From positions 204,270-268,269 of the forward strand of contig JBAYIT010000001.1 in assembly GCA_041665485.1 (NCBI GenBank): DNA of 64,000 nucleotides. The letters are read 5' to 3'. Within the stretch, counting starts at the first letter, position 1. Every line of letters starts with the position of its first letter. Shown piece by piece: positions 25,354-42,985 of the stretch. The notes beneath the pieces are model-generated. The model saw only the letters and a list, made by a program, of their open reading frames with translations. It made no database searches and was not told where the DNA came from. The DNA comes from Candidatus Shapirobacteria bacterium. Lineage in GTDB: Bacteria; Patescibacteriota; Microgenomatia; UBA12405. The translations under genes were made by a program, and so were the position numbers.

Positions 25354-26508
25354 CTAATTAATAATCCACCACTTGAATTCAATGTCTTCGGTAACAGGGG
25401 AGTCGAGGCCGACAATAAAGGAGCCGGGTTGTTTGGAGAAGATTTGAAGGTTTTGATTTTTGCCACCTTTTGTTGTAGTTAGGTAGATTTGGGATAGGGA
25501 TGAGACGTGGGAGTTGGTGATAGTTAGTTGCTTTTGATTGGCGGGTAGGGTGCTGTTGCCGGAGAGAGCGTTGCTGTCGGATTGATTAACAACAGAGATC
25601 TTTTTGTCGGTTTCGGGAGAGGCGATGATGGGGCCATTGGGAATTGAGGCTTCGAGAAGAGGACCTTCGGGAGAGATGGTAGATCCTGGATCCTGGATCC
25701 TGGATGGGAATGAAGTGGGATTATTATTTTTATTTTGCGACAGTAAATTTTCCAGGGCGGATTTTTCCGAAGAAACAACTTGAATTTGGCTTTGGTCGGT
25801 AAGGAGGGGAAGGAGGCGGGTGTAGGTGGCTAGGGCCTCTGGTATTTGGCCAATTTGTTGTTGGAGGCGGGCGAGATCGTAAAAATTCTGAGCCTTGGTG
25901 GGTTCGAGACTGACGGTGGCCATAAGGTATTGGAGAGTATTTTGGGCATCGCCTTTTTTAGCATAGAGCGAGGCCAAAAGGCGAGATATTTCGGCAGAAG
26001 ACGGATTTAGTCGATTGGCGATGGAAAAATCGGCTAAAGCAGAATCGATAAATTGAGGCTGGGAGTCGGAAAGAGATTGATAGATACGGGCGCGTTGTTC
26101 GTAACCACGGAAATCTTGAGGGAATAATTTGATGGCATCGGTGGCGGAGAGGATGGACTGATTGAGAAGGTCGATAGTAGATGGTCGATCGTTGATCGTC
26201 GATGTTGGTTTTTGTTGTTGGAGGGCGAGGGCCTGTGAGAAGTATGTTTGGGAGGCGAGGAGGTAATGTTGGATGGACTTGGGAACTTGGGTGGGAATGA
26301 TTTGGATCTTAGATGGTAGATCTTGGATCTTAGATGAAGGATTTTGATTAGATTTGAGGAGGACGAGACTGCCAAAAGAGATAATGGAGAGGCCGGAAAT
26401 GGAGAGGAGGGGGAGCACGGAGTTCTTAGATCTTGGATGATAGATCTTAGATGGTTGAGAGAGGCCGAGAGAAGAGAGTTTGGTGATTTGATCGGGAGTG
26501 AGATACAT
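25354..26508 (-). CDS. Membrane-anchored TPR-repeat protein with the C-terminal 'WWIIN' domain
   Basis: N-terminal TM 'LPLLSISGLSIISFGSLVLL'. TPR-like repeats. The C-terminal ~60 aa, '…IVGLDSPVTEDIEFKWWIIN', are homologous to the C-terminus of the giant protein. Confidence 0.6.
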   Translation of the reverse strand: MYLTPDQITKLSSLGLSQPSKIYHPRSKNSVLPLLSISGLSIISFGSLVLLKSNQNPSSKIQDLPSKIQIIPTQVPKSIQHYLLASQTYFSQALALQQQKPTSTINDRPSTIDLLNQSILSATDAIKLFPQDFRGYEQRARIYQSLSDSQPQFIDSALADFSIANRLNPSSAEISRLLASLYAKKGDAQNTLQYLMATVSLEPTKAQNFYDLARLQQQIGQIPEALATYTRLLPLLTDQSQIQVVSSEKSALENLLSQNKNNNPTSFPSRIQDPGSTISPEGPLLEASIPNGPIIASPETDKKISVVNQSDSNALSGNSTLPANQKQLTITNSHVSSLSQIYLTTTKGGKNQNLQIFSKQPGSFIVGLDSPVTEDIEFKWWIIN

Positions 26509-26566: not shown

Positions 26567-26908
26567 TTATTTTTTAATTAGAGCAATTTTAGAAAAAATA
26601 AGAGAAAGTTCGTGAGCTTCTTGGTAAAGAATAGCAAAAATAGCATGTTGATTTGGGATTGCTTTAAAAAACATCTTTAACCAGTAGCGAGTTTCCATTG
26701 ATTCTCTTTTACAAATTAGGATTTTATTACGAAAATCTTTGGGACTTGAAGCTCCATTGGCTTCAGAATAATTAGCACCAATACTGGTAGCACTACGAAT
26801 TATTTGTTTGATTAATGGTAAGGTAATGGCTGTTTTGGGTAATTTTTGGCACAGATCAATAATATCTTCGCTAAATTTTTCAGTTCTTTTTTCTAAGTTG
26901 TACTCCAT
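26567..26908 (-). CDS. Four-helix-bundle protein (Avd/23S-IVS family), third and more divergent copy
   Basis: 'IIRSATSIGANYSEANGASSPKDFRNKILICKRESMETRYWL'. Confidence 0.6.
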   Translation of the reverse strand: MEYNLEKRTEKFSEDIIDLCQKLPKTAITLPLIKQIIRSATSIGANYSEANGASSPKDFRNKILICKRESMETRYWLKMFFKAIPNQHAIFAILYQEAHELSLIFSKIALIKK

Positions 26909-27020: not shown

Positions 27021-30000
27021 TTAGTTAATGATCCACCAATTAATATCAATATTATGATCGAGGGGGTTGTCGATGGCAATGGTGAAACTAGATTTTAGAT
27101 CTTGGATGTTAGATGTTGGATCAATGTATTTGTCTTTAATATAAATGACTTGATTGTTAGTTGAGCCGACGGGGGTGAGGTAGACCATGGAAGCAGAAGT
27201 GAGTTGGTTGTTGAGGATGATGATTTCGGTTTGGCCGGCGATGAGAGTAGTGGTGCCGGCGGTAGTATTGGAAGCGATTTCCGCCGATTGGGTAGCAGAT
27301 TCACTCGGATCGGCTTGGGCGATGGCGACGTTGGGGAGGATGGTTAACTTGTTAGATCTTAGATCCTGGATGTTAGATGTTAGAGCGGTGAGAGAGGTGG
27401 TTTGAATATCGGAGGCAGTTATAAGATAGGTGGAGAGGGAACCCGAAATTGTGGCAGTTTGAGCGGTTAAGGTGCCGTTTAGATAGATATTTCCATTAAC
27501 AGTGACATCGCCGTTGTCGGCAATAATAAGAGTGTTGTTCATGATGTTAATAGTGCCAACTTTGGAGGGTTGAATGTAGAGAACCGAGGCGGTGGTTTCA
27601 ATAAGATTGTCTTTAATGATAATTTGGCCGGATTGGAGGGTGCCGGAAATTAGGGCGTCGGCCAATTCGGCTTGGCCGGCGACGGCCAACTGCCCAGCAA
27701 CAACCAGATTGTCGGTAAGAGCCAGAGAGCCGGTAATTTGAGCCGAGCCGGTGGAAATATCAGCCAGCCAGTTTTCTGATTGAGAGAGTAAGACGTCTTC
27801 TGGGGGAGTAGTAACAGTGGATGTGTCGATGATTTTCTTGACTTCGTCGCGGAGGGCGGAGATTTTTTGAGTCATCAGGTCGCCAAAGTTACCTTCACGG
27901 CTGATGATTTGATCGGCGTAGAGGATGCCACTGATGGTGGCATCTTTAGATCTTAGATCCTGGATGTTAGATGTTAGAGCGGTGATAGCGTTGGCGGAGA
28001 GAGTGGTAACACCGATGTCTTGGGCGGTGATGGTTTTGGATTTTAGATCCTGGATGTTAGATGTTAGGGAGTCAAGGTGATCGACATTAAGGCTGGGGGT
28101 TTTAATGTTTTGAGCGAAGAGAGAGCCAATAACTTCGGTGTCGCCGCCGATTTTGAGAGTAGAACCAATACCGGTGTTAGAGATTGGTGTAATAGTTTGT
28201 GTTTCGATATCATTAGATACTAATTTGGAAGTATTAATGATTCCTGCCTTTAGATTGGCAATAAGAGCTTGACTGAACTGTCCAAGACGGGTAACGGCGG
28301 AGCCGTTACTGGATGTTAGATGATAGATCTTAGATCCTGGATCTTGGATGTTAGTTTCTGGTGAAGTGACGATCTGGCCGAGGGTGTCGAGAGTAAGGAG
28401 GGTGTCGGGGTCAAACCAGCTAGGTTGGACTAAAGCGAGAATAGTGCAGTTACCCGGGTCAGAGCAGGAAGATGAGCTTTCCAGAGCTTTACCGATAATT
28501 GGCCCCGAGGTGGTGGCTTTTTGGGCACGGCCTTCGATGGTGGTAGAAGCAGTGAGCGGATCTCCAGGGCTAATAGCTCCATTTTCGAGGGTGATTTTAA
28601 CTGGCACTCGGCCGGAAAGAGCGATGGGGTAGACATTTTGGGAGGTTTCCGAAGAGCCAAGAAGAAGACCGGGATTAGTAGAAACGACACCGACGAGTTT
28701 TTGACTGCCGGCTTGGGCGCGGAGGACATGGCCAGTGTTTTCGAGATCGAAGGTAACAAGTTCGCCGGTGGAGAGATTTTGAGTAGAGGGGTAATTTTCG
28801 GCCAAATCGGCGTTGGCGGTGTCAACCGAGCCGATGTGTAAGACACTGCCATAGTTATTTTGATAATACTGTTTGAAGTACATATCGACGGCGGTATAGC
28901 TGGCGGTGTCCCAGACTGAACCGTTGTAGTAACCAGCTTGGCCTCCAGTATAGGTTGAACTACTATCTTTTTCTCTGACATTGATGTAATTTGATCCGTC
29001 TCCACCAGTGGAGGTGGTGGTAACAAGACAGTATTTGGTACCGGCTTGGAGATAGGGCTTGGTAGAGAAGGTGAGGGAATATTCGGCGCCAGGAGAAGCG
29101 GTTTCGCCAATGCTGGTGTTGGCGATATTACTCGAGGTGGCGACGACGGTTCCGTTTGGTTGGTTGCCATCGCAATTTTGGAGCTGAACAGAGAAGTTGT
29201 AGGAACCGGCACCGACTTTCCATAACTGGAGAGTAACTTTTGACAAGCTACCACTGGCTTGGGGAGTGAAACTTTGAGAAAAAAGACGAGTGCCGTAAAC
29301 AGCAAAACTATTGTTGGGGCCAGTGAAGCCTTGGTCGAGGGTTTCGGCGCCGGCAGCAGTGGAAACATCAATTCGGGCGCTGACGGAACCGTCGGATTTA
29401 TAGAAATAGAAATCATTACCACTGCCGGCCCAGAGACGAAGATCGTCAGTGCCACCTTGTTTGATGTCGCCACCGGCAACAATTAAACTACTACCAACGC
29501 TTAGACTGGTGGATAAATAACCATTGCCAACAACCTGAAGTTTGTAGGTAGGATTGGTAATGCCGATACCGACATTGCCGGTAGAATTTTGGATAAATAA
29601 TCTTGAATTTCCATCCTGATCAATATGGAAGGCGCTGGTAGTGGTTGGCTGTGACAATGTCCAAGTGCTTCGACCAGTTTCAACTAAGATAAACTTTGGC
29701 GTTGTCCCGGCAGTAGTCAAACTGTATATCGTGTTATTTGATTTAATGATGCCATTTACATCGAGGGTATAGCCTGGTGCGGTGGTACCAACACCAACAT
29801 TGCCGGTAGTGTAAAGGTTAGTAAAGCTAGCGGTGCCACCGACATTGAGAAGATAGAGAGCGTTGGTGGAGCCAATACCAAGGCGAGTAGAGATTAAGGC
29901 ATCGCCATTAACTTCTAGTTTGTAGAGGGGATTAGTTGTACCAATACCGACATTTCCGTAATTTGTTATTGTCATTGCTCTTGATAATCCAGCGCTAGCA

Positions 30001-33000
30001 TTACCTACATCGAAACCTAATGCGGAATTCACCCAGCTTGACCCTCTTTCAAATCCCCCAGTTATTCTTGATGCACTTCCAATCCAACCGGCACTACTAC
30101 CGTCATTGTTTTGAAAGACAATACTTGGGGAATATCTTCCGGGAGAGGAAGGAGAGCTGGTTAGAGTAAGTTGGGGATTATTGGCTGAGCCTGTAGTACT
30201 ATATAGGTGTAGTGAGCTTGTCGGAGCAGTTGTTCCAATACCAACATTGCCACTAGCATGAAGATTAGTAAAGCTAGCGGTGCCACCGACATTGAGAAGA
30301 TAGAGAGCGTTGGTGGAGCCAATACCAAGGCGAGTAGAGATTAAAGCATCGCCATTGACATGGAGTTTGTAGAGAGGAGCGGTGGTACCAATGCCAACAT
30401 TGCCGGTGGAATTTAGAAAAAGCTGGTTATCCCAACCGGTGATATCACCAGTGGTAGAAGTGGAAGAAGCAAGAAGTAATCCGTTACTATAGCCACGAAT
30501 TTGAGTGGCGGCGTTACTGACAATATGTCTTAGTGTACTACCAACGGCGACAGCATTAAAACGGATGGAACCACTTTGGTAGAGAGAGAGAGAACTGTCG
30601 CTAATTGAAGTAGAGTTAGATGTGTTGAAGTAGTAAGCGGTATTGCCAATGTCGACGAACTTGGTGCCAGTGATGATGCCGTTGGCGCTGATGGTGGCGG
30701 AGGAGCCAACACTTAGAGTGCCACCGATACTAAGATTGGTGGTAAAGTTGCCATTACCGATGACGTTGAGTTTAGCGGTGCTAGTAGCGCCGATGCCAAC
30801 ATTACCACCAAACATAGCATTGCCATTAATGCGTAAGTTAGCAGTTTGATCAGCGGTAAATTGATTTTGGACGAAGTCACCGGTGTTACCAATATTTAAA
30901 TAATAACTACCATGTTGGCCATCGAGGAGATCAGCACTTAGGTTGGTGACAGTGTTGGTGCTACCGACAGAGACAAAAGTACCACCGATGGTTAAGTTGG
31001 TGGTGATATTGGCAGAACCACTAACGTTGAGCTTGTAGGAAGAATTGGTTGCGCCGATTCCTAATGGTCCAAACATACTGACAGATCCGTATTTAAGATA
31101 ATCGTTGTAATTTGTAGAGAAAGCGTTGGCTTGATCGCCTTCGTAGAGCGAAACTGAATCGATCCAATCTGTATCACCGGCATGGGAAGTGCCGGTGTTG
31201 GTTAACATGAATATACTTATGGTTTTGTCGTCACCGATGGTGAAATTGGTTGACTGCCAGTGCCAGGCGTCGTCTTTAATGAGAGTTTGGTTGCCGTAGG
31301 CGACAATATAAGAGGTTCCATCATAAACACCGAGTTGAAGAGGGAGAGTGTTGGTTGAGCTAGATTTATACCAAAAGTTTAAGGTGTATTTTCTGGCCGT
31401 TGTCAGAGTGCTTCGAGGAGGGACGGTGTATTTTGCTCCTTGCCAGGCGCCACCATCAACCATTTTTAAAGAGTAGGTTGACTTATAGCCGGTGTCTCGG
31501 GAGAAGGTGCCACCATTGGATATCCAGGCGTCGGGAATGGATGAAGTGCCGATATTCCAATAATCAAAATTGCCATTGTTGATTAAATTGGCGGGAGCAT
31601 TGGTGCCGTCGCCACCAACCAGGTGCCCGGATAGATTAAGATTGCCGGAAATATCAACTTTTTGAGAGGGGGCGGTGGTGCCAAATCCGACATTGCCAGA
31701 AGAGGCGATGTATAAAGCCTGGGTGTTGGAATTGATACCTAAGAAAGAAAGGCCAAAAGAAGAAACACCAATGTTGGTGTTTTGAGTTAGTGTTCCTCCT
31801 AGTCCAACAGAACTGGTGCCGATGGATTGAAGGCCATTGGTGGCAGCAATAAAGTCATTGGCGCCATTTTTATCCCAAGCAGTAGTGTCTAAATAACCAA
31901 CTAAACCACTATTACCACTCAAGAAAGCAGCCACACTTGATCCACCAATGGCAGTATTAGAAAGGTTTAAAGAAGCAGTGGTGGTGGTGGTGCCAACACT
32001 TAAATCAGCGTTAGTGTAGATAGAAGCGGTTGAAGTTCCACCTACACCTAGTTTAGTAAAGACACCTTCACCAGTAACATGGAGCTTGTAAAGAGGATTG
32101 GTGGTGCCAAGGCCAATGTTGGTGCCGGAGTCATAGATAAGAGAGTTGGTAATGCTGACAGTGGCAGTAGTGCCAGTGAATTTAGTGAGGTAGCCGGAAA
32201 TAGGGTTGTTATCAACCAAGGCGATGTCTTTGTAGGTGGTATAGGCGGCGGTGCTACCGAAACTGCCTTGGTAAAGACGCATTCCCAAGCTAGACTTGTT
32301 AAATTCGAGGAGGTTTTGATTTCCACCTGAACCATCGAGATATGAATTAAGATGGAGGAAGTCTGCCCAAGGGCCGGCACTATTGTTGTTGTAGGCAGTA
32401 AAACCGAATTTTAGATTACTAGTGTTGACTTCAGTAGGACCTATTGAACGGTTGTCTTCCCCGTAGAGGCTAAGAGCTGGCCCACCTTCAGCGTTGGAAG
32501 TGGCGTAATTACCAGTAGTTTGAGTGCCGAGAGTAACATCTCCCCAAGAAAGATCACCATGCATAAGTTGGTTGACAGTACCGGAAGTGCCAATGAGTTG
32601 ATTGGTGGCATTGGTTCTAACCAGAGTGTTGGCGGTGACATTAGTTAGAGTAAGAGTATTACCAATAGAAAGAGTATTGCCAAAAACAGAAGCACCACTA
32701 ACACCAATGCCACCCGAGCTGATAGTTAAACCGGCAAAAAGAGGGGTAGCCCCGGTGTGGATGTTTTGAGGCAGGGAAAGGGTAACGGCTCCGGTGGGGT
32801 TGGAAGCAGTAATTTGATTAGTGGTACCAAGAATGCTGGTAACACCAATATTACTAAAGACATTGGTACTAGAAAGACTAATACCAACACCGGCGGTGTA
32901 AAGAGTGCCAGCACCACTAGTAAAAGCGCCAGCTCCTAAAACATTTTTGTATAAGTTACCAGATGAATCAATAAAAACGGCGGTGGTGCCGACGCCGGTT

Positions 33001-36000
33001 GTGCCAATTCCTAAACCAGAAAAATTAACAGTTCCGCCAACTCCCAAACTTCCAGTTCCACCGACTTGGAGAGTGTAAGAAGGGGTGGTAGTGGCAATAC
33101 CGACTTTACCGGTGGCATCGATTACTAATGCTACGCCACTTGCAAAAGTTTCAGAACCGTATCCAATCTTAAATTTGTGACTATCAGAGCCATCTCTACC
33201 AATCGACCATGAGGTACTTGTATTGGATCTAAAATTTATAACGCTATTGTTTGTAGATTTACCTTGTAAATATAGTAATGCGTTACCAGAGGCGACGTTG
33301 TCTATCATTACCCCAGAAGTCCCCACTATATCTAGGTTAACTCTTGGCCCCGTCGTTCCAATGCCAACATTGCCATTAGCCTTTAAATAAAGTGATTGAG
33401 TATTACCCGTACCCAGGAAAGAAAGATTGTAGGAAGAAAGATTAATGTTGGTGTTTTGAGTAAGTGTTCCACCTAGGCCAATAGATAGTTGATCAGTGCC
33501 AGAGATAGAAGTACCAATACCATTGTAACCAAGAATAGAAGCAGTATTACCAAGACCAATAGATTGAGCAGTACCCAGGGAACCAGCCAACATCCAACTA
33601 ACATTGGCTGATTGAGCATAACGATTATCAAGATCAACAGTGGCCAAAGAAGTGAGATGACCAAGACCATCAAGACCAATGTCTTGAATGACAATACCAT
33701 TACTGTTGTCAGAGGAAGCTTGAGAGGAAGTATCGGCGTGAGAGATAGTGGCACCAACTCCAGTACCGGTAACCACCATACTAGTTCCAGCTTGGAGATT
33801 AAGTAAACCATCAAAGGCCAGACCATTTAAAGCTCTTTTACTAACCACATTATTACTATCGATAAACAAGGCAGTGGTACCAGTACCAGCGACAGTGGAG
33901 GCACTTAAAGTTAAAGTACCACCGATGCCGACATTGGCAGAGAAAGAAGAAGTACCGGTAATACCAATACCACCACTGTTAATGAAAAGTGAATAGGTAC
34001 TATGAGTAGCTCCAACACCTAGTTTAGTAAAGACACCTTCACCAGCTACTTGGAATTTGTAGAGTGGGGCAGTGGTACCAATGCCGACATTACCAGCTGA
34101 CAAGATAGACATGGCATCTACGGGAGTGCCAGCAGTTCGAGTTCTAAAAAAGATACCGCCTAAAACAGCACTATTGTAAGTATTGTCGATATATAGGTTG
34201 GCAACACCATTACCGTTATAGTGAATGAGACCTTGGTAGGCAGCGTTGTTACCAATGGCGACCGAGCCATTATATGCTTGTGCCCCACCGATTGGATCCC
34301 AACCGTTGAACGTTGCTTGGGTGACGGAATTACTATAAACATTAAATGGACTAGTTGGATTAGTCATACCGATGCCTACATTGCCATTGGTAGTAATAGC
34401 CAGGGCTTGGGTGTTGTTATTAACACCCATGATGTAGAGATTGTTAGCACCAGTATTAATGAAAGTATTTTGAGTTAATGTTCCACCTAGACCAATAGAT
34501 AGTTGATCAGTGCCAGAGACAGAAGTACCAATACCATTGTAACCAAGAATAGAAGCGGTATTACCAATACCGACTTGTTGAGCAGTACCAGTATTGCCAG
34601 CCAACATCCAACTAATGTAAGTGTTGTCTTGAAAGGCTAATCCACCTAAAGCTCTTTTACTAACCACATTATTACTATCGATAAACAAGGCAGTGGTACC
34701 AGTACCAGCGACAGTGGAGGCACTTAAAGTTAAAGTACCACCGATGCCGACATTGGCAGTAAAAGAAGTATTGGGAGTAATGGTTAGTCCAAGTCCGGCG
34801 ATAGTAGTTAAGTAGGAAGCATTACCAAAGGTAACAGTAGCACCATTACCCATAAACAAAGGTGACTTGGCAGCAGTAGTAGCAGTAAGAGTGTTGCCAA
34901 CAGAAAGTGTGCCGGTGACACTACCATTACCAGTGACAGACAAAGAAGCGGTAGTAAGAGTGGTGCCAACAGAGAGACTGTTACCAAACACCGAAGCACC
35001 ACTAACTCCAATACCACCAGCGCTGATGGTCAATCCGGCAAAGAGAGGAGTGGAAGAAGTAGTTAGGTGTTGACCAGTGTTAAAGGCAAGTTGGCTGTCA
35101 CCAATAGAATCACCAATGATAGCCAGGGAGACACCAACTCCTTCACCGGCAGTACCAGTAACCCCAATTTGACTATTACCGATAATGGTAGAAACATAAT
35201 TACCGGCAGTTTGAGTGCCGAGAGTAACATCTCCCCAAGAAAGATCACCATGCATAAGTTGGTTGACAGTACCGGAAGTACCAATGAGTTGATTGGTGGC
35301 ATTGGTTCTAACCAGAGTGTTGGCGGTGACATTGGTTAAAGTGAGAGTGTTGCCAATAGAAAGAGTATTGCCAAAAACAGAAGCACCACTAACACCAATC
35401 CCACCCGAGCTGATAGTTAAACCGGCAAAAAGAGGGGTAGCCCCGGTGTGGATGTTTTGAGGAAGAGTTAAAGTAACAGCTCCGGTTTGAGCAGTAGCCG
35501 TAGTGCCATTGGCTAGTATTTGATTGGCAGTGCCAGTTAAAGAAAGGACACCAGTATTAGTAATGGTCAAAGCATCGGTACCGGAAATGGAAGTGCCAAT
35601 ACCACTACCAGCTAAGAAAGAAGCAGTATTACCAAGACCAATAGATTGAGCAGTACCCAGGGAACCAGCCAACATCCAACTAACATTGGCTGATTGAGCA
35701 TAACGAGAATCAAGATCAACAGTGGCTAGGGAAGTCAAATGACCAAGACCATCAAGACCAATGTCTTGGATGACAATACCATTACTATTGTCAGATGAAG
35801 CTTGAGAAGAAGTATCGGCATGAGAGATGGTGGCACCAACTCCGGTACCAGTAACCACCATACTAGTACCAGCTTGGAGATTAAGTAAACCATCAAAGGC
35901 AAGACCATTTAATGCTCTCCGACTAACAACATTATTACTATCGATAAACAAGGCAGTGGTACCAGTACCAGAGACAGTAGAGGCACTTAAAGTTAAAGTA

Positions 36001-39000
36001 CCACCGATGCCAACGTTGTTAGTAAAACTTGAATTACCAGTAACACCAATACCACCAGCATTAACAAAGAGATTTTGAGCAAAGGTAGATCGGCCAGTGA
36101 CAGCCAGAGTACCACCGATACTTAAGTTACCAGTGAGATTACCATTACCACTAACATACAAAGCATTAGTATCTGTTCCTCCTACACCTAACTTAGTAAA
36201 GACACCGGCACCAGCAACTTGGAGAGGGTAAAGAGGGGCAGTAGTGCCGATACCGACGTTGCCACCACTTTTAATAGTGACATTTGCAGTATTATTCGTC
36301 CCCAAAATAACGTCATTAGTACCATAAGTTCCTATTACTAAACCTCTTCCCGTTCCACCATTAGGGTTATTTATAATAAAATCATTGGCGTTTCTAGCTG
36401 CTCCCAAAATTGAAGCTACATTATTATTGACACCTGGAACCATAAAAGCCAGGTACTGTCCAGTCGTATCTCCTACCATAAAGCGAAAATCAGCATTAGT
36501 TCCTGTACTTGTATTTTTCATCTGAACCCCTGATATACCGTCCACGTTGTCGCTAATTAAAACCTTTGGAACTGATCCAGAAAGTATGGGGGTAGTAATC
36601 AGACCTCCAATATCAAAAGTGGCATATGGACTTGTAGTCCCAATACCAACATTGCCATTGGTAGTAATCGCCAGAGCTTGGGTGTTGTTATTAACACCCA
36701 TGATGTAGAGATTGTTAGCACCAGTATTAATGAAAGTATTTTGAGTAAGTGTTCCACCAAGGCCAATAGATAATTGATCAGTGCCAGAGACAGAAGTACC
36801 AATACCATTGTAACCAAGGATAGAAGCGGTATTACCAATACCAACTTGTTGAGCAGTACCAGTATTGCCAGCCAACATCCAACTAATGTAGGTGTTGTCT
36901 TGAAAAGCGAGTCCGCCGAGAGCTCTCCGACTAACAACATTATTACTATCGATAAACAAGGCAGTGGTACCAGTACCAGCGACAGTGGAGGCACTTAAAG
37001 TTAAAGTACCACCGATGCCGACGTTGGCAGTAAAAGAAGTATTGGGAGTAAGAGTAATTCCGGAACCAAGAATGGTGGTTAAACCACTGGCATGACCAAG
37101 AGTAAGAGCACTACCATTGTTACTAAAGATGGGAGAGAAAACAGAGGCAGAGAAAGTAGGAGCATTAGTAGTACCAATGGTGACAGTAGAACCAGAGATA
37201 GTATTTAAGATGTTAGTGCCATTGGCAAAATTAACAGTAACACCAACACCGATAGCAGTACTACCAGCACCAGTAGCTTGCAAAAACCAACGATCATCAC
37301 TACCACTCTTATCCCAACTACTAGTATCAAGATAACCAATCAAACCACTATTACCAGAAAGGAAAGCCGCCACACTTGATCCACCAATGGCAGTGTTACT
37401 TAGATTTAAAGAAGCAGTGGTGGTGGTGGTGCCAACACTTAAATCAGCATTAGTGTAGATAGAAGCGGTTGAAGTCCCACCTACCCCTAGTTTAGTAAAG
37501 ACACCAGCACCAGCAACTTGGAGGGGATAAAGGGGAGCGGTGGTGCCGATGCCGACATTGCCAGCCGTAGTAATCGCCAAAGCTTGGGTGTTGTTATTAA
37601 CACCCATGATGTAGAGATTGTTGGTGCCAGTGTTAATGAAAGTGTTTTGAGTAAGTGTTCCACCTAGGCCAAATGTAATTTGACTAGTACCAACTGAAGT
37701 AGAGGTAATACCATTTAGACCAGTAAAGGATAAAGTGGTGCCACCACTGATGGTTTGATTACTAGAAGCTTTAGCAATCCAGTTGTAGGTACTAGCAGTA
37801 CTATCGAGGAAAGCTAGAGCACCTAATGCTCTTTTACTAACGACATTATTACTATCAATAAACAAAGCAGTGGTACCACTACCAGCAACAGTGGAAGCAC
37901 TTAAAGTTAGAGTACCACCGATGCCGACGTTGTTAGTAAAACTTGAATTACCAGTAACACCAATACCACCAGCATTAACAAAGAGATTTTGAGCAAAGGT
38001 AGATCGGCCAGTAACAGCCAGAGTGCCACCAACATCAAGGTTGGTGGTAAATCGACCACTGCCGGTAACATCAAGTTTGTAGGCGGGGGAAGTGTTGCCA
38101 ATACCAACCGAGCCGTTGGCTTGAATGTAAAGATTGGTGTTGGCGCCAGATCCGGAAGTAATTTTGAGAGAATAATTGGAGGAAGAGGTGGAGCCAATAT
38201 CGAGATTGAGACCATTGCCGGAAGAATTTGACGAAACAAGAGAGGCAAGGTTACCAGAGCCTGATGAACCGATACTAAAAACAGTGCCAGTGGCTTTGGT
38301 GTAAAGCTGGGAGAGGTTAAGAATGTTGGCAGTGTCGGAACATGATCCGGAAGACTCGGTGCATTTGGAGGAGAAATTGACCAAGGGGTTAAGGATACTA
38401 AGACTACCGCCGGTGGCTGGTTGGAGAGAAACGGTGGCGCCGGCCCAGATGGAGAGGGTGTTGATGGTGTAACTACTGCTGGTGTTAGCGGCGCCGATTT
38501 GGTAACTGGCAACTCCGGTCACTTGATTAATGCCCTGATTCCAGAGAGATGTTTGCCCGGCTCCAAGGGTAACTGTTCTAACGTTATTAACAGACAGAGT
38601 GGAAAAAACAATTTCTGAAGCATTACTACTAGTGCCGATGGAAAGGTTGGTATTCATGCCACTGGCGGTAGTGGCAACGCCAATAGGGGTAATTTGATTA
38701 ACATTGTAAAAACTGGCAGCGCCGGCGACGAGGCTGGCAGCTTGACCGGACATGGTGATTCCGATGCTGTAAGTGCCAGGAGTAGGGGCAACCAGATACC
38801 AAATATCGGCCCAGGTTTGAGTGCCGGAGGCGGTGGTGGCTTTGGTGAGTGGGGTACCGTTCCAGTAAATGCCGGAAACGGTGCGGGTAAGACTGTTTTG
38901 ATAATTGACACCGACAATTAAAATGTTGTTGGAGTTATTGCCAACTGTGTGGTTGAAATTGAGATTGGTGGTATTACTGACACCGATGGAAGAATTGGCA

Positions 39001-41522
39001 TCGGCGGTGATGGTGGCGCTTCCGCCGGTTATATTGGCGGTTAGATTTCTTAAAACCGAGAGGTCATTATTATTGACAGTGGAATTTCCGGTGTAAGTGG
39101 TGTCGTTGATAATATCTAACTTATTAGTGGGGCTGGTGGTGCCAAGGCCAAAATTGCCGGTGCCAAAAAAGCCGAAGTTATTGCCATTAAGATCGATTTT
39201 GGTGAGTTGGTTGAGAGTGCCACCGAGACCAACAGTTCGAGAAGTTTCAGTTAAGCCGTTGTTGAAAGTATAGGCACTGCCAAAAGCCAGAGCACCAAGA
39301 ATGTTTTTGTATAAATTGCCAGAGGCATCAGTAAAGACGGCGGTGGTGCCGGTGCCAGTAGAACCAAGGCCTAAACCACTAAAATTAACCGTACCACCAA
39401 CTCCCAAACTTCCTGTTCCCCCGACTTGGAGTCTGTAGGTAGGATTGGTGGTGCCGATACCAACATTGCCGATATTTGTAATTGTGACCCTATCGTTAGT
39501 TCCTAAAGCACCAGTGTTGTTAGAAAAGGTAAACGCCCCCGAATTACTATTATCAGCTCCAATTGTCCAAGCGTTTGCTCCCTGAGTGGTATCAAAATAT
39601 ATAGATGGGTCTCCGGCCAAACCTCCTGCAGTTTTAATTATAATTCCTGCGTTAGAATTAGCCGTGTTACTGGTATTTTGTATCGTCATTCCATTGTTGC
39701 CACCTGAGTTACTACCACCAACTGTGAATGCAGGTAATCCGTTTGCGTTTATGGTTACAGCTCCAGTGAAGTTGCCATCTCCAGCAACATTAAGAAGGGC
39801 AGTAGCGTGGGTACCACCAATACCTAATTTAGTGAAATTACCAGCACCATTAACGTCAAGAGTGTAGAGAGGGAGGGTGGTTCCAATTCCGACATTGCCG
39901 GATCCGTCGATAGTTAATCTTCGGGTAGCATTTGTATATAAACTAAATTTGTTGTTTCCGGCAACACCGATTAGTGCATTTGTGGCTGTTCCTGAATCAA
40001 AGCCCGCATCACTTCCCCAATAAGATAAAGCCGTACTACCGACTTTTAAATATTGATAGGTTCCACTGGCAGCTACGCCGTTGATGGTAATTGCACCTGA
40101 TACTTCTATTTTTGTAGTTGGGTTGGTTGTTCCGAGGCCGACTCGGCCAGTGGCGTAATCGAAATACATAACTTCAGTATTACCAATATTAAGTCTGGTA
40201 TTTTGGGTGAGGGCGCCGCCGAGGCCGAAAACATTAGTAGAGATAGCGGATAAACCATTGGTGGTGGAGTAAGTCGTGCCGATGGCGGTGTCGGAGAAAG
40301 CCAGAGAACCGAGAACACGGCGGGTGATAATGTTGGTGGATGGATCAATGAAGAGGGCGGTGGTGCCGGCGCCAACGATAGTGGAGTTTGAAAGGGTTAG
40401 AGCGCCACCAATGTAAACGTTGCCGGAGGCGCCAACGGAAAAACGAGTATTCAATTGAGTGTTGCCAACCCCTAAATCGTAGTTTTGAAATTGAAGAAAA
40501 TTGTAATTATTGGAATAGTTACTTCTGACGATGCCGGAATAAAGATTACCGGAAACCATGTTGGCGTCGGCTTCGGCTTGAACAAAGCCACCAACAGCAG
40601 GGGCGTTCATTTCAAAAGAAAGATCAAGAATGCCGCCAGCATCGGGGTTGATGGTGATGTTGCCACCACTGCCGTCGCTAGCTTTGAGGAGCATGGCTTG
40701 GCCTTCGATGCCAAAAGTGCCGGAAACTGATTTGATGGTGGGGGAGGTTTCGCCAAGGTTGAGGTTGCCAGAGTTATCAAAAACAGCGACGGTATTTTTG
40801 TAACCGATGCCGGAGGTGCCAAGGCCCAAACCCTGAAGAGTTTCGGAATTAAGGGCATAGGCGACGGTGGCAATTTGCTGGCGGGGGTCCATTACTTCGG
40901 TGCCGGCGGTAATTTCTAGCCAAACTTCGGCGTTTTCAGAGAAAACGCTGGGAGGGATTTCAGTGCCGTGAGTTTTGCCAATGACGACATTAAAAATGCC
41001 ATTGTCGTCGGGTTTAACAACTTGACTATTGCCGGTGCCGGAGGTGTAGAGAGAGGTGCCGGCGCCAAGCGTGCCATTGTTCCAGAGTTTAAAAATAATG
41101 CCGGTTTCGGAAGTGATGGGATTGCTGTAGGAATCGGTGAGACGGCCTTGAAAGGAGAGAATTCTGCCGGGGCGGATGGGGGAGGAGGTGGTGGAATAGG
41201 CAAGGTTTTTGCGGGCTTTGAGGATGGTTTGGGAATAGAGGCCGTAGGTGAGACCGGCGAATAATATGAGGAGGGTGGAGAGAACGAGATAACGACTAAA
41301 TGAGATCCTAGATGTTAGATCCTGGATCCTAGATTGGAGGTTGGATGGGGTTGGGGATGGTGGTTGGTAACTGGTAATAAACTTCTTTTTAATTAAGAAT
41401 TTTTTGAAGACGGAGATAGAGGAGAGCTTGCGGTTGATGGTGGCGGGGGAAAGATTTTGGGACTTTAAGTAGTCTTGGTAGGAGGAGAGACGAGAATGAT
41501 CGAAATACTCTTTGAGTTGCAA
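27021..41522 (-). CDS. Giant (4833 aa) membrane-anchored surface protein with tail-fibre-like repeats, an N-terminal integrase core-binding-like domain and the C-terminal 'WWIIN' domain
   Basis: Single uninterrupted ORF. N-terminus 'SYQDYLKSQNLSPATINRKLSSISVFKKFL' (tyrosine-recombinase SAM-like motif), then TM 'YLVLSTLLILFAGLTYGLY'. More than 4000 aa of G/T/S/N-rich repeats with 'GNVGIGTT.P.YKL.V.G'. Five 'SNIQDL(R/K)SK' motifs. C-terminus '…IDNPLDHNIDINWWIIN'. Confidence 0.8.
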   Translation of the reverse strand: MQLKEYFDHSRLSSYQDYLKSQNLSPATINRKLSSISVFKKFLIKKKFITSYQPPSPTPSNLQSRIQDLTSRISFSRYLVLSTLLILFAGLTYGLYSQTILKARKNLAYSTTSSPIRPGRILSFQGRLTDSYSNPITSETGIIFKLWNNGTLGAGTSLYTSGTGNSQVVKPDDNGIFNVVIGKTHGTEIPPSVFSENAEVWLEITAGTEVMDPRQQIATVAYALNSETLQGLGLGTSGIGYKNTVAVFDNSGNLNLGETSPTIKSVSGTFGIEGQAMLLKASDGSGGNITINPDAGGILDLSFEMNAPAVGGFVQAEADANMVSGNLYSGIVRSNYSNNYNFLQFQNYDLGVGNTQLNTRFSVGASGNVYIGGALTLSNSTIVGAGTTALFIDPSTNIITRRVLGSLAFSDTAIGTTYSTTNGLSAISTNVFGLGGALTQNTRLNIGNTEVMYFDYATGRVGLGTTNPTTKIEVSGAITINGVAASGTYQYLKVGSTALSYWGSDAGFDSGTATNALIGVAGNNKFSLYTNATRRLTIDGSGNVGIGTTLPLYTLDVNGAGNFTKLGIGGTHATALLNVAGDGNFTGAVTINANGLPAFTVGGSNSGGNNGMTIQNTSNTANSNAGIIIKTAGGLAGDPSIYFDTTQGANAWTIGADNSNSGAFTFSNNTGALGTNDRVTITNIGNVGIGTTNPTYRLQVGGTGSLGVGGTVNFSGLGLGSTGTGTTAVFTDASGNLYKNILGALAFGSAYTFNNGLTETSRTVGLGGTLNQLTKIDLNGNNFGFFGTGNFGLGTTSPTNKLDIINDTTYTGNSTVNNNDLSVLRNLTANITGGSATITADANSSIGVSNTTNLNFNHTVGNNSNNILIVGVNYQNSLTRTVSGIYWNGTPLTKATTASGTQTWADIWYLVAPTPGTYSIGITMSGQAASLVAGAASFYNVNQITPIGVATTASGMNTNLSIGTSSNASEIVFSTLSVNNVRTVTLGAGQTSLWNQGINQVTGVASYQIGAANTSSSYTINTLSIWAGATVSLQPATGGSLSILNPLVNFSSKCTESSGSCSDTANILNLSQLYTKATGTVFSIGSSGSGNLASLVSSNSSGNGLNLDIGSTSSSNYSLKITSGSGANTNLYIQANGSVGIGNTSPAYKLDVTGSGRFTTNLDVGGTLAVTGRSTFAQNLFVNAGGIGVTGNSSFTNNVGIGGTLTLSASTVAGSGTTALFIDSNNVVSKRALGALAFLDSTASTYNWIAKASSNQTISGGTTLSFTGLNGITSTSVGTSQITFGLGGTLTQNTFINTGTNNLYIMGVNNNTQALAITTAGNVGIGTTAPLYPLQVAGAGVFTKLGVGGTSTASIYTNADLSVGTTTTTASLNLSNTAIGGSSVAAFLSGNSGLIGYLDTSSWDKSGSDDRWFLQATGAGSTAIGVGVTVNFANGTNILNTISGSTVTIGTTNAPTFSASVFSPIFSNNGSALTLGHASGLTTILGSGITLTPNTSFTANVGIGGTLTLSASTVAGTGTTALFIDSNNVVSRRALGGLAFQDNTYISWMLAGNTGTAQQVGIGNTASILGYNGIGTSVSGTDQLSIGLGGTLTQNTFINTGANNLYIMGVNNNTQALAITTNGNVGIGTTSPYATFDIGGLITTPILSGSVPKVLISDNVDGISGVQMKNTSTGTNADFRFMVGDTTGQYLAFMVPGVNNNVASILGAARNANDFIINNPNGGTGRGLVIGTYGTNDVILGTNNTANVTIKSGGNVGIGTTAPLYPLQVAGAGVFTKLGVGGTDTNALYVSGNGNLTGNLSIGGTLAVTGRSTFAQNLFVNAGGIGVTGNSSFTNNVGIGGTLTLSASTVSGTGTTALFIDSNNVVSRRALNGLAFDGLLNLQAGTSMVVTGTGVGATISHADTSSQASSDNSNGIVIQDIGLDGLGHLTSLATVDLDSRYAQSANVSWMLAGSLGTAQSIGLGNTASFLAGSGIGTSISGTDALTITNTGVLSLTGTANQILANGTTATAQTGAVTLTLPQNIHTGATPLFAGLTISSGGIGVSGASVFGNTLSIGNTLTLTNVTANTLVRTNATNQLIGTSGTVNQLMHGDLSWGDVTLGTQTAGNYVSTIIGNSQIGVTGTAGEGVGVSLAIIGDSIGDSQLAFNTGQHLTTSSTPLFAGLTISAGGIGVSGASVFGNSLSVGTTLTTASLSVTGNGSVTGTLSVGNTLTATTAAKSPLFMGNGATVTFGNASYLTTIAGLGLTITPNTSFTANVGIGGTLTLSASTVAGTGTTALFIDSNNVVSKRALGGLAFQDNTYISWMLAGNTGTAQQVGIGNTASILGYNGIGTSVSGTDQLSIGLGGTLTQNTFINTGANNLYIMGVNNNTQALAITTNGNVGIGMTNPTSPFNVYSNSVTQATFNGWDPIGGAQAYNGSVAIGNNAAYQGLIHYNGNGVANLYIDNTYNSAVLGGIFFRTRTAGTPVDAMSILSAGNVGIGTTAPLYKFQVAGEGVFTKLGVGATHSTYSLFINSGGIGITGTSSFSANVGIGGTLTLSASTVAGTGTTALFIDSNNVVSKRALNGLAFDGLLNLQAGTSMVVTGTGVGATISHADTSSQASSDNSNGIVIQDIGLDGLGHLTSLATVDLDNRYAQSANVSWMLAGSLGTAQSIGLGNTASILGYNGIGTSISGTDQLSIGLGGTLTQNTNINLSSYNLSFLGTGNTQSLYLKANGNVGIGTTGPRVNLDIVGTSGVMIDNVASGNALLYLQGKSTNNSVINFRSNTSTSWSIGRDGSDSHKFKIGYGSETFASGVALVIDATGKVGIATTTPSYTLQVGGTGSLGVGGTVNFSGLGIGTTGVGTTAVFIDSSGNLYKNVLGAGAFTSGAGTLYTAGVGISLSSTNVFSNIGVTSILGTTNQITASNPTGAVTLSLPQNIHTGATPLFAGLTISSGGIGVSGASVFGNTLSIGNTLTLTNVTANTLVRTNATNQLIGTSGTVNQLMHGDLSWGDVTLGTQTTGNYATSNAEGGPALSLYGEDNRSIGPTEVNTSNLKFGFTAYNNNSAGPWADFLHLNSYLDGSGGNQNLLEFNKSSLGMRLYQGSFGSTAAYTTYKDIALVDNNPISGYLTKFTGTTATVSITNSLIYDSGTNIGLGTTNPLYKLHVTGEGVFTKLGVGGTSTASIYTNADLSVGTTTTTASLNLSNTAIGGSSVAAFLSGNSGLVGYLDTTAWDKNGANDFIAATNGLQSIGTSSVGLGGTLTQNTNIGVSSFGLSFLGINSNTQALYIASSGNVGFGTTAPSQKVDISGNLNLSGHLVGGDGTNAPANLINNGNFDYWNIGTSSIPDAWISNGGTFSRDTGYKSTYSLKMVDGGAWQGAKYTVPPRSTLTTARKYTLNFWYKSSSTNTLPLQLGVYDGTSYIVAYGNQTLIKDDAWHWQSTNFTIGDDKTISIFMLTNTGTSHAGDTDWIDSVSLYEGDQANAFSTNYNDYLKYGSVSMFGPLGIGATNSSYKLNVSGSANITTNLTIGGTFVSVGSTNTVTNLSADLLDGQHGSYYLNIGNTGDFVQNQFTADQTANLRINGNAMFGGNVGIGATSTAKLNVIGNGNFTTNLSIGGTLSVGSSATISANGIITGTKFVDIGNTAYYFNTSNSTSISDSSLSLYQSGSIRFNAVAVGSTLRHIVSNAATQIRGYSNGLLLASSTSTTGDITGWDNQLFLNSTGNVGIGTTAPLYKLHVNGDALISTRLGIGSTNALYLLNVGGTASFTNLHASGNVGIGTTAPTSSLHLYSTTGSANNPQLTLTSSPSSPGRYSPSIVFQNNDGSSAGWIGSASRITGGFERGSSWVNSALGFDVGNASAGLSRAMTITNYGNVGIGTTNPLYKLEVNGDALISTRLGIGSTNALYLLNVGGTASFTNLYTTGNVGVGTTAPGYTLDVNGIIKSNNTIYSLTTAGTTPKFILVETGRSTWTLSQPTTTSAFHIDQDGNSRLFIQNSTGNVGIGITNPTYKLQVVGNGYLSTSLSVGSSLIVAGGDIKQGGTDDLRLWAGSGNDFYFYKSDGSVSARIDVSTAAGAETLDQGFTGPNNSFAVYGTRLFSQSFTPQASGSLSKVTLQLWKVGAGSYNFSVQLQNCDGNQPNGTVVATSSNIANTSIGETASPGAEYSLTFSTKPYLQAGTKYCLVTTTSTGGDGSNYINVREKDSSSTYTGGQAGYYNGSVWDTASYTAVDMYFKQYYQNNYGSVLHIGSVDTANADLAENYPSTQNLSTGELVTFDLENTGHVLRAQAGSQKLVGVVSTNPGLLLGSSETSQNVYPIALSGRVPVKITLENGAISPGDPLTASTTIEGRAQKATTSGPIIGKALESSSSCSDPGNCTILALVQPSWFDPDTLLTLDTLGQIVTSPETNIQDPGSKIYHLTSSNGSAVTRLGQFSQALIANLKAGIINTSKLVSNDIETQTITPISNTGIGSTLKIGGDTEVIGSLFAQNIKTPSLNVDHLDSLTSNIQDLKSKTITAQDIGVTTLSANAITALTSNIQDLRSKDATISGILYADQIISREGNFGDLMTQKISALRDEVKKIIDTSTVTTPPEDVLLSQSENWLADISTGSAQITGSLALTDNLVVAGQLAVAGQAELADALISGTLQSGQIIIKDNLIETTASVLYIQPSKVGTINIMNNTLIIADNGDVTVNGNIYLNGTLTAQTATISGSLSTYLITASDIQTTSLTALTSNIQDLRSNKLTILPNVAIAQADPSESATQSAEIASNTTAGTTTLIAGQTEIIILNNQLTSASMVYLTPVGSTNNQVIYIKDKYIDPTSNIQDLKSSFTIAIDNPLDHNIDINWWIIN

Positions 41523-41568
41523 ATTTAATAATTTAAAAATTTAAGAATTTAAAAAATTTTGGAAATTG

Positions 41569-42025
41569 TTAATTTGTGGGTTGTGAATTTGTCCATGTGA
41601 TATATTGGCGTAAATCAGAGATGTAGTTTTTGATAGTTGAAGGGGTGGCATGGTGGGTGGAGAGATAGGTAGCAAACTGTGATATAAGTGCATCAGGGGT
41701 GGGTGGAGGCGGGGAGGCAAGAGAATGGCGAATTTTCTTGAGGGGATTGTGGTCAATCAATTTTTGGTCGAGGGCAAATTGGCAGAAAGAGGAAAGAGAT
41801 GCTAAATACCTCCGGTAGTTAGAATTGGCGGATACTTTGTTAACAAAATCGGAAATTACTTTGGAGTCAAATGGATTACCTTGGCCAACCGAGTCGAAAT
41901 AGGTATAGAGGTCGGAGAGGTAGTTGCGGATAGTGGAATCGGAGTAAGACTTGGATGAAAGCCAGGCACGATAGGAGTTAGAGATCTTAGATCTTAGATC
42001 TTGGATGTTAGATGTTGAGGACATG
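41569..42025 (-). CDS. Stand-alone protein made of integrase N-terminal SAM-like (core-binding) domains, with no catalytic domain
   Basis: 'YSDSTIRNYLSDLYTYF…NYRRYLASLSSFCQFALDQKLIDHNPLKKI' and a second 'ATPSTIKNYISDLRQYITW' match the XerC/D core-binding pattern LSP.TI..Y…L..F..F…NP. Starts 'MSSTSNIQDLRSK'; the ORF track used a TTG start at 42042. Confidence 0.6.
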
Positions 42026-42260
42026 GTTAGCGCCAGAGCCAAACAAAGGAGGTGGCAATGATTAGAAAGGGAATGAGCCGTTCAACTACCGGTTTTACCG
42101 AATATAAAATTTTAGCTTCAAAATTAGACTTTTTAGACATTGTTATCAGTTATTAATAATTAATAATTTAAATATCTACTATATTGAAAAAGCTGTCAAG
42201 AAGGGGAAATTAAGCATTAAATGATGTAGATAGATAGGATCAATTAAGATAGTTTTCAGT

Positions 42261-42286
42261 TACGAGTTACGAGTTACGAGTTTCAC
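42261..42286. repeat. Tandem heptamer repeat (gttacga)3
   Basis: Related heptamers (tacgaat, ctagaat) occur in tandem at 21222-21248, 51616-51646, 54436-54470 and 56641-56690. Confidence 0.6.
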
Positions 42287-42565: not shown

Positions 42566-42985
42566 ATGAAAAGTTCGAAGTTGATAGTTTACGGATTGTT
42601 GATGGTGGTGGGAGTGGGATTGATTTATTTCATGACAACACAAGTAATTCCTCGGGCGTTGGTGTCGATGACTAAGGCAGCGCCAAGCCAGAGAGTATCG
42701 TTTACTAATTCGTTGATTTTGGGAGAGAGGGTGTTGGTGACAGCAGATGGAGTGGAAAATGCTAAGGTAAATGTATTCGTAATGGATGATTCAGGCAAGG
42801 GAATACCGAATAGGTCGGTTGAATTATCAGGTCAAGCTGATAGTTCACCAGTAACAGCAACAACTGACGGCGAGGGGATGGCAAGTTTTGAATTTAGTTC
42901 AAAGAAAGAAGGAGTGATTGAGGTGACGGCGAGTATTGAGGGGGTGGATTTGGGCAAGAAGATGCGGGTGACGTTTAGGAATTAA
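42566..42985 (+). CDS. Small membrane-anchored protein with one Ig-like/Big-type domain
   Basis: N-terminal TM 'LIVYGLLMVVGVGLIYF'. The domain 'VLVTADGVENAKVNVFVMDDSGKGIPNRSVELSGQ…' is paralogous to the convergent gene. Confidence 0.5.
   Translation: MKSSKLIVYGLLMVVGVGLIYFMTTQVIPRALVSMTKAAPSQRVSFTNSLILGERVLVTADGVENAKVNVFVMDDSGKGIPNRSVELSGQADSSPVTATTDGEGMASFEFSSKKEGVIEVTASIEGVDLGKKMRVTFRN

Follow-up and report, generated by a model that had tools for sequence, protein, structure and literature searches.

The 64,000-nucleotide (nt) stretch analysed here, called the window below, is part of the chromosome of a Candidatus Shapirobacteria bacterium from the candidate phyla radiation (CPR), and it raises the question of what pieces of a tyrosine integrase are doing at the base of a giant surface protein. 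Coordinates are window positions throughout. The list of open reading frames (ORFs) of the window contains two neighbouring ORFs on the minus strand, 41569..42042 and 27021..41522. An initial annotation, which reported both ORFs and their peptide strings correctly, had described them as a stand-alone protein with tandem integrase core-binding domains next to a giant fibre protein fused to the same domain. In this genome, a single core-binding domain is instead split over two genes, and the pair is the conserved fission product of an architecture, known from relatives, in which two core-binding domains, a transmembrane (TM) helix and a fibre are encoded by a single ORF. The locus is a chromosomal three-gene operon that encodes a membrane micro-protein of 37 amino acids (aa), a cytoplasmic subunit of 151 aa, and a single-pass surface fibre of 4,833 aa.

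The small cytoplasmic subunit (41569..42024, minus strand; isoelectric point, pI, 9.35) harbors one complete core-binding (SAM-like) domain and the first hairpin of a second. Its gene most likely starts at the ATG at 42024, because the identical protein P0001 from a Candidatus Shapirobacteria metagenome-assembled genome (MAG), named 'site-specific integrase' by NCBI, is 151 aa long, and because the TTG at 42042 falls within a conserved micro-ORF; the length of 157 aa initially given is therefore less likely. The protein matches Phage_int_SAM_1 with 36 bits (E 7.2e-9, cutoff 22.3), and the NCBIfam models of XerD and XerC over its first ~100 positions only (E ~1e-9, 37-38 bits vs cutoffs of ~330). 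Its complete domain (41725..41982, minus strand; aa 15-100 of the 151-aa protein) covers positions 2-87 of the 87 of a hidden Markov model (HMM) built locally for the family, with an E-value of 9e-41, and residues 29-94 in the 157-aa numbering match positions 10-83 of the 83 of the Pfam SAM_1 profile. Pfam and NCBIfam detected no catalytic domain (PF00589, with its R-K-H-R-H/W-Y active site) in the small or the giant protein, as had been stated for the former, and Pfam found no tyrosine-recombinase catalytic domain in any window ORF scanned. The SAM-like module is thus decoupled from recombination, as first proposed, and since the catalytic domain that defines an integrase is absent, the NCBI name 'site-specific integrase' is wrong. 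Neither a TM segment nor a signal peptide was found in the small protein.

The second core-binding domain is divided between the small and the giant ORF, since the end of one protein and the start of the other cover successive parts of the domain profile. The orphan first hairpin at the end of the small protein (helices A'-B', 'LISQFATYL...STIKNYISDLRQYITW', 41584..41691, minus strand) corresponds to residues 119-155 in the 157-aa numbering, which match only positions 1-38 of the 85 of SAM_4, so that one and a half copies of the domain are present where two had been counted. The N-terminus of the giant protein carries the second hairpin (helices C'-D', 'YQDYLKSQNLSPATINRKLSSISVFKKFL', 41382..41501, minus strand), with residues 8-47 matching SAM_1 positions 44-83 of 83; it does not start with the same domain, as had been claimed, but with the other half of it. 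A SAM-like profile match is therefore significant for the small protein, whereas the giant protein alone stays below the threshold (17.7 bits, E 0.0045). The breakpoint is the loop between helices B and C of this second tetrahelical domain. When the small protein and the giant N-terminus were joined in silico, residues 114-198 of the chimera matched SAM_1 positions 1-83 of 83 across the junction, and the score rose from 36 to 54 bits (E 1.6e-14). An AlphaFold2 model of the chimera, computed without an alignment, reached a mean predicted local distance difference test (pLDDT) score of 81, with 74-93 over the reconstituted domain, and Foldseek searches with it returned top-ranked matches with non-significant E-values. 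The model shows that the two pieces are compatible with a single predicted fold. That the two separate chains would associate is inferred from the existence of fused relatives, from gene coupling, and from the conservation of both halves.

This split is widespread. A locus scan restricted to one genome per species yielded 80 loci, and at least 38 of these species-level genomes harbor a small gene followed by a giant ORF with the other half-domain, a TM helix, and the motif 'LSFQGRLTD'. The upstream partner genes encode about 140-190 aa, with one full core-binding domain and the first hairpin of a second, and the giant ORFs start with '...FNQSxFxxYAAFLKSTxLSDASIxRKLSSLxSFQKFL', which is the second hairpin. 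In all 22 aligned homologues of the small protein (33-81 % identity), the sequence stops shortly past 'TIKNYINDLxQYIxW', where the first hairpin ends. A search from the giant side gave the same arrangement: the 40 %-identical P0131 (5,544 aa) has a partner gene 5 nt upstream. With conservation scored as the mean frequency of the commonest residue, the half-domains reach 0.62 for the first hairpin and 0.55 for the second, vs 0.62 and 0.64 for the hairpins of the intact domain; the linkers beside the half-domains are poorly conserved (0.26-0.34, with 0.28 for the linker after the second hairpin). This pattern in the alignments indicates purifying selection on both half-domains. A pseudogene or an assembly artefact was also considered, and ruled out by the identical protein in independent assemblies and by the conserved split.

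Fused relatives exist as well. Tandem SAM-like domains were found in a single long ORF in six examined loci (L021, L045, L052, L054, L069, and L063). L045 corresponds to P0031, which is 60 % identical to the giant protein of the window, and L052 lies in a complete Woesebacteria genome. The TM helix and 'LSFQGRLTD' follow in five of the six, the motif of L063 departing from the search pattern. When residues 1-330 of the giant protein were searched against 1.84 billion cluster representatives, 330 proteins were recovered at E<=1e-30 and 717 at E<=1e-10, with lengths of up to 5,631 aa. Of their N-termini, 159 complete ones were classified with the local HMM and regular expressions, an approximate procedure given that a half-domain can align to either half: 66 carry a half domain only (with a median of about 89 aa before the TM helix), 34 one full domain (183.5 aa), and 28 two full domains (285 aa), while 14 have no detected domain (81.5 aa) and 17 are ambiguous or mixed. 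The N-terminal regions, or feet, of the fused proteins span 200-490 aa and have a pI of 9.6-10.2. The distal parts vary: P0140 (L089, 4001-9283) ends in a Peptidase_S74 tail-fibre chaperone, and P0068 harbors a long collagen-like G-x-T run. The anchor module thus seems to stay constant while the fibres are exchangeable. Database names of the fused members are mostly 'site-specific integrase, partial', the NCBI and JGI names being otherwise 'site-specific integrase', 'XerD', or 'hypothetical'. Many contigs among L007-L048 are labelled 'uncultured Gammaproteobacteria bacterium', one Methanoperedens, and one Balneolaceae, despite the presence of the CPR-specific gene pair; these are probably mis-binned or mislabelled MAGs.

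The giant single-pass fibre protein (4,833 aa, 27021..41522, minus strand) starts at a TTG that aligns with the ATG start of L085 and L086 (84-85 % identity). Its N-terminal 76 aa are basic (13 lysine and arginine vs 4 aspartate and glutamate residues, pI 10.3), and no signal peptide was found at this N-terminus. As first noted, a TM helix follows the N-terminal domain: residues 78-97 (YLVLSTLLILFAGLTYGLYS, 41232..41291, minus strand) form the sole predicted one, with the only Kyte-Doolittle windows >=1.6 in the whole protein, and a hydrophobic segment stands at the same place, before 'LSFQGRLTD', in every family member. Next comes the family signature, a juxtamembrane beta-sandwich ('LSFQGRLTD...PRQQIATVAYALNSETLQG', 40866..41168, minus strand) with near-invariant columns in an alignment of 56 sequences and the consensus 'AY..P.R.LSFQGRLTD ... 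PRQQIATVAYA.NSETLQG'. AlphaFold modelled this module as a beta-sandwich with pLDDT above 90, and Foldseek returned only generic Ig-like or prealbumin-like matches (E>=4e-3). The remainder is a G/T/S/N-rich fibre region of ~4,000 residues (29757..40142, minus strand) with internal repeats of ~0.9-1.0 kb. It had been described as an array of more than 4,000 aa of GNVGIGTT repeats, but the motif GNVGIGTT..P..KL.V occurs in only 16-17 scattered copies (aa 461-3922), irregularly spaced (51-723 aa) inside larger modules of ~300-340 aa. Similarity to tail fibres is weak (PHROG 9942, E 7.6e-7 over four short stretches; PHROG 19602, E 4.8e-4); Pfam gave no tail-fibre family at E<=0.1 and no Peptidase_S74 in the giant protein of the window, and a sequence search of the whole protein against the PDB returned one weak match, 8ojn, a 'cell wall surface anchor family protein' (E 4e-5).

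The giant protein is taken to have its N-terminus in the cytoplasm (N-in), because that end is basic and has no signal peptide, because its partner protein has no TM segment, and because fused feet of 200-490 aa are implausible as exported N-terminal tails. Based on this topology, the following mechanism is proposed. The small and giant polypeptides would be made by coupled translation, the 151-aa subunit would dock on the tail of the fibre, and fragment complementation would rebuild the split four-helix domain, so that each fibre chain would stand on a tandem core-binding foot at the cytoplasmic face of the membrane. Coupled translation and reassembly of the split domain into such a foot are considered likely, and the same confidence is placed in a fibre with its N-terminus inside and its C-terminus outside, serving contact with host cells or at the cell surface; giant membrane proteins of CPR bacteria are generally assumed to serve contact (PMC8080830). 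Taken as a whole, the part of the explanation that concerns architecture and assembly is held with moderate confidence. A number of observations weigh against it. The chimera was modelled as a single covalent chain and without an alignment, so that the binding of two chains goes beyond the model. The hairpins of the fold resemble each other, and the local HMM placed the giant hairpin on the first half of the domain, not the second. The charges flanking the TM helix (+2 on the N-terminal vs +3 on the C-terminal side) give an ambiguous positive-inside signal, and the cytoplasmic placement proposed initially thus agrees with the other lines of inference but not clearly with these charges. Finally, the junction of the window is atypical, in that a 46-nt spacer separates the genes, the start is a TTG, and a Shine-Dalgarno-like sequence is missing, and translational coupling is less certain there than in the relatives.

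What the foot does is a separate matter, for which the two roles suggested initially are live options: a regulatory or partner-binding module, and a domesticated integrase fragment. The leading candidate is nucleic-acid binding, a property of core-binding domains in recombinases and in domesticated derivatives (ALOG, Ndc10, MrpR/SroF). The foot would then connect the fibre outside the cell with DNA, be it in the manner of a tether or of a ToxR-like membrane-bound regulator. This proposal is tentative: the DNA-binding step is drawn from analogy and basic charge, and the charge could equally reflect a membrane interface, which counts against it. Nearly as likely is that the foot no longer binds nucleic acid and has become a cytoplasmic protein-protein module, which could possibly anchor the fibre, organise it (for example as a trimer), or help its insertion or export, with the small subunit and the micro-protein as assembly factors. 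Precedents for such an adaptor are the helix-turn-helix (HTH) domain of RodZ, which binds MreB, and the MRG domains, whose related helical fold binds partners. The module always accompanies a TM helix and a membrane micro-protein, and domain numbers that vary within the family (0.5 to 2 or 3) are easier to reconcile with an adaptor than with a sequence-specific DNA binder. Moreover, the intramolecular chaperone Peptidase_S74 of P0140 implies an oligomeric fibre with clustered cytoplasmic ends. The feet are uniformly basic, however, and no conserved candidate for a cytoplasmic partner was found in the gene neighbourhood. For these reasons on either side, a protein adaptor is regarded as possible rather than probable.

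A more speculative extension of the nucleic-acid-binding foot is a docking switch, in which the hairpin of the fibre would hold the 151-aa DNA-binding subunit at the membrane, and contact, tension, or a change sensed by the micro-protein would release or capture it. It is improbable, and is mentioned for its consequences: if true, it would be direct outside-to-genome signalling in an ultra-small episymbiont, built from integrase parts, and a new class of membrane-sequestered transcription factor that would be widespread in CPR bacteria.

The repeats of the locus bear on another role, in which catalytically dead core-binding proteins would direct or restrain a recombinase acting in trans that reshuffles the repeats of the giant gene, and so vary the surface. 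The giant gene does hold 300-nt repeats with 85-93 % identity, AGATCT-containing 7-nt repeats cluster at both of its ends, and the core-binding domains of recombinases recognise core sites. Nevertheless, such a helper function is very unlikely: the scanned ORFs of the window hold no catalytic domain of this type, a membrane-tethered foot would be an odd means of addressing its own gene, all repeats are direct with no inverted-repeat architecture of a core site, and the 7-nt repeats have copies in other places and are lacking in close relatives. These imperfect tandem repeats (repeat family D6, AAGATCT-like) lie in the C-terminal region of the giant gene (27090..28351, minus strand), where they are read as 'TSNIQDL(R/K)S'. 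Further copies are found at 41303-41334, before the TM helix, at 41982-42015, in the N-terminus of the small protein, and at 9413-9439 and 26165-26466; five sites are near the giant C-terminus, and the TPR gene downstream carries copies as well. The units (AGATCTT, GGATCTT, GGATGTT) keep a constant strand orientation and, within genes, are read in the sole open frame, and the closest relatives have none at the N-terminus of the small protein. Since copies occur outside the operon and are absent from close relatives, they are probably a genome-specific simple repeat, which may be slippage-prone. The idea that they are operon-specific binding sites was dropped on the same two observations.

Other small repeats were observed in passing. 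Two short tandem repeats lie at 42255-42279 (AACTCGT x3.5) and 42434-42447 (GAAAATT x2). Short palindromic or hairpin elements stand in frame in variable linkers of L001 (10682-10709), L003 (~10570-10615), and L085 (~2560-2640), and at several junctions; one perfect 28-nt palindrome, GTACGGGCGATTCATGAATCGCCCGTAC, is read as 'VRAIHESPVH', and other elements give peptides of the 'KGRWPKAGGV' and 'ETHDRASL' types. This suggests that small repeat elements colonise coding linkers in CPR genomes.

The junction between the two genes raises the question of whether two products are made at all. One domain's coding sequence continues across a gap, and recoding, whether by a programmed frameshift or by ribosome hopping over the 46 nt, would yield one polypeptide. 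The spacer (41523..41568, minus strand; repeat family D19) is AT-rich, has an 8-nt periodicity, and contains stop codons in all three frames. A hop in the window would lead from AAT 41574-41572, followed by the TAA stop, to AAT 41525-41523, so that matching codons flank the gap. The distance from take-off to landing, 49 nt, is reminiscent of gene 60 of phage T4. Also in favour of recoding, the giant ORF lies in the +1 frame relative to the small ORF in ~30 of ~45 split loci, and three loci have no ATG, GTG, or TTG before the half domain. However, the giant genes of the relatives have ordinary starts. The start codon lies 4-20 nt within the small ORF in most split loci, in forms such as ATGA and TAATG overlaps or an ATG 11-17 nt within the upstream ORF, and the commonest junction (ATGAAACTTGA, TTGAATCTTAA) has its start, an ATG, TTG, or CTG, 11 nt before the stop codon ends. 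The three seemingly startless loci (L006, L008, and L017) carry a CTG at the position of the ATG or TTG of the others, 11-14 nt before the upstream stop codon ends, which suggests near-cognate initiation during termination-reinitiation. L009, L026, and L034 have a spacer of 15-18 nt and a GAGGG-type Shine-Dalgarno sequence before the ATG. In the closest relatives, L085 and L086, the small and giant genes overlap by ATGA, and the TTG of the window aligns with the ATG of its relatives. Within the window itself, the +1 frame meets a TAA at 41543-41541, so that a simple frameshift cannot join the ORFs; AAT is frequent in an AT-rich spacer, and a matching pair is thus expected by chance. The spacer sequence is not conserved even in 85 %-identical relatives.

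The conserved overlapping starts argue against frameshifting and hopping alike, and on the comparison of ~45 junctions and of the closest relatives, recoding is rejected as having next to no likelihood. The junctions bear the signature of two separate products whose translation is coupled. Between the three genes in the window, no promoter-like or terminator-like site was found, and Rfam gave no match at E<=1 when the leader and the junction (41300-42700) were scanned. Short insertions concentrate at the junction, as exemplified by the 8-nt-periodic spacer of the window, (AGAAATT)5 in L032, and a hairpin element of ~85 nt in L085 and L086, and the split is preserved despite them.

That the SAM-like pieces are non-functional remnants of a decayed integrase, as the NCBI and JGI names 'site-specific integrase' or 'XerD' might suggest, is effectively refuted by the conservation pattern, since both half-domains are as conserved as intact ones over 33-80 % sequence divergence and at least 38 species and hundreds of 50 %-identity clusters show the arrangement, and it is also at odds with the housekeeping context (LeuRS, Rho, MreB, ComEA/ComEC) and with the absence of a detectable remnant of the catalytic domain.

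The first gene of the operon is a micro-ORF of 37 aa (MSKKSNFEAKILYSVKPVVERLIPFLIIATSFVWLWR, 42027..42140, minus strand) that ends in a hydrophobic helix, its stop lying 2 nt ahead of the small gene's ATG. In 33 related loci, among them the fused locus L045, homologous ORFs of 34-53 aa ('MYKxYNFxPK...AEKLVPFLIIAATFVWLWK') stand at the same position, and their C-terminus is near-invariant ('LVPFLIIAATFVWLWK'). The conserved residues use varying synonymous codons. The homologues form 32 database clusters, all named 'hypothetical', and Pfam gave no match for the micro-ORF. Its product is a tail-anchored membrane micro-protein or, alternatively, a regulatory leader peptide. A promoter-like site, TTGACA-17-GATATT (42171..42199, minus strand; 10 of 12 consensus matches), lies ~30 nt upstream and is, by its match to the consensus, likely the promoter of the operon.

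The operon is surrounded by a housekeeping chromosome, with genes for leucyl-tRNA synthetase (LeuRS), Rho, MreB, ComEA, and a split ComEC identified by Pfam among the window ORFs. The nearer neighbours include a divergent Big_1 protein, two 23S_rRNA_IVP genes, and TPR proteins, and no phage genes were found around the giant gene among the scanned window ORFs. Synteny of these housekeeping and cell-envelope flanks is conserved, the gene order from LeuRS to the giant gene being identical in L003. The Big_1/Invasin_D3 protein (139 aa, 42566..42985, plus strand; Pfam Big_1 E 4e-15) is transcribed divergently, has an N-terminal hydrophobic segment, and is found at the same place in L001, L003, L085, L086, and L089; it is a conserved neighbour whose membership of the module is uncertain. 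The same is possible for the TPR protein downstream of the giant gene (384 aa, 25354..26508, minus strand; Pfam TPR matches), which also lies 3' of the family member in L089, most other contigs stopping within the giant gene.

Between ComEA and the fibre operon lie six co-directional genes (43453-49350, minus strand), whose products have signal-like segments at the N-terminus or membrane-anchor segments at the C-terminus. Five of the six have no Pfam match and one has a single sub-threshold match, and six matching Pfam-less genes stand at the same position in L003; this block may be a surface-structure cluster. ComEC is present as two ORFs, 50190-50990 and 51090-51854, both on the plus strand, with the Competence domain in one and Lactamase_B in the other, as in L003 and L004. 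Three paralogous 23S_rRNA_IVP or bAvd-like four-helix-bundle genes lie within 6 kb (21258-21632, plus strand; 24954-25325 and 26567-26908, minus strand), two of them directly downstream of the giant gene. A link to a diversity-generating retroelement through these genes was considered and dropped, given that the third copy is 5 kb away at 21258 and that the family is common in CPR genomes. Pfam scans of the window ORFs gave no reverse-transcriptase family, no dedicated search for reverse transcriptases or template and variable repeats having been made. At the other end of the window, 1220-8415 is likely an integrated element: its guanine plus cytosine (GC) content is low (0.33-0.37 vs ~0.43), and it encodes a large serine recombinase (1220-2782, minus strand) and a 954-aa KAP-family P-loop NTPase (3457-6321, plus strand). 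Over the whole window (1-64000), the GC skew of the plus strand is +0.3 to +0.5 whatever the gene orientation, and the skew at third codon positions of the coding strand is +0.46 to +0.72 in plus-strand genes and -0.60 to -0.86 in minus-strand genes. Should the leading strand be the G-rich one, the 14.5-kb giant gene would be encoded by the lagging strand, with its transcription running head-on to replication.

These findings have consequences for annotation as well as for biology. Hundreds of CPR proteins now labelled 'site-specific integrase' cannot recombine DNA; once they are seen as a family of giant fibres whose cytoplasmic foot derives from integrases, the label is corrected and false 'mobile element' signals disappear from CPR genomes. 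A life attached to host cells is assumed for CPR bacteria, and a DNA-binding-type fold under a host-contact fibre would be a testable candidate for coupling surface contact to intracellular responses. The conserved break within a domain, the coupled halves, and the naturally fused controls in sister lineages offer a clean natural case of fragment complementation, and the pieces are small enough (151 aa and about 60 aa) to be studied in E. coli without culturing the organism.

As first stated, this architecture appears to be uncharacterised: in the searchable literature, no description was found of a giant protein with a TM helix and a SAM-like or core-binding domain, of the split form, or of the micro-protein. 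It can nevertheless be compared with several known systems. Like the tyrosine recombinases of the XerC/XerD type, the foot is built on the N-terminal tetrahelical core-binding domain (PF02899, PF13495, PF13102). Unlike them, it has no catalytic domain, carries the core-binding domain in tandem, is attached to a TM helix and an extracellular region of 4,700 aa, and has one copy split over two polypeptides. SroF of Phi3T and the yeast kinetochore protein Ndc10 are DNA binders domesticated from core-binding or recombinase folds. The plant ALOG transcription factors are likewise domesticated DNA binders with the core-binding fold (PMC3537659), and the SPbeta repressor MrpR is a recombinase-fold DNA binder (PMC10516654). 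All four are soluble regulators or kinetochore proteins with demonstrated DNA binding, whereas the foot is membrane-tethered under a giant fibre, and no sequence relationship to them was established beyond the shared fold family.

In its inferred topology, the giant protein matches regulators of the ToxR/CadC type and RodZ, in which an N-terminal cytoplasmic part with a DNA-binding-type fold is followed by a single TM helix and an extracytoplasmic C-terminal part. They differ in the fold, which is a winged HTH or XRE-type HTH in these proteins and a tetrahelical core-binding domain here (Pfam found SAM-like families only, and no OmpR-type winged helix, in the cytoplasmic parts), and in the size of the external part, which is tens to hundreds of residues in theirs and thousands here. 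The protein also resembles the giant surface proteins of CPR bacteria, such as those of Vampirococcus lugosii (PMC8080830), in being a multi-thousand-residue, repeat-rich, membrane-anchored protein of an ultra-small bacterium. For those proteins, the papers searched mention neither a cytoplasmic domain of the integrase type nor a split domain or a partner subunit. To phage tail fibres it is linked by weak profile similarity and by the Peptidase_S74 domain of one family member, and separated from them by its chromosomal context. Finally, the two genes behave like 'Rosetta stone' fission/fusion pairs, fused in some genomes and separate in others, where they are adjacent and translationally coupled. 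Unlike in such pairs, the break lies inside a compact four-helix domain and not between domains, so that folding would require both polypeptides. The architecture is thus a combination of known kinds, a domesticated core-binding domain and a giant surface fibre, with an unusually clean natural split.

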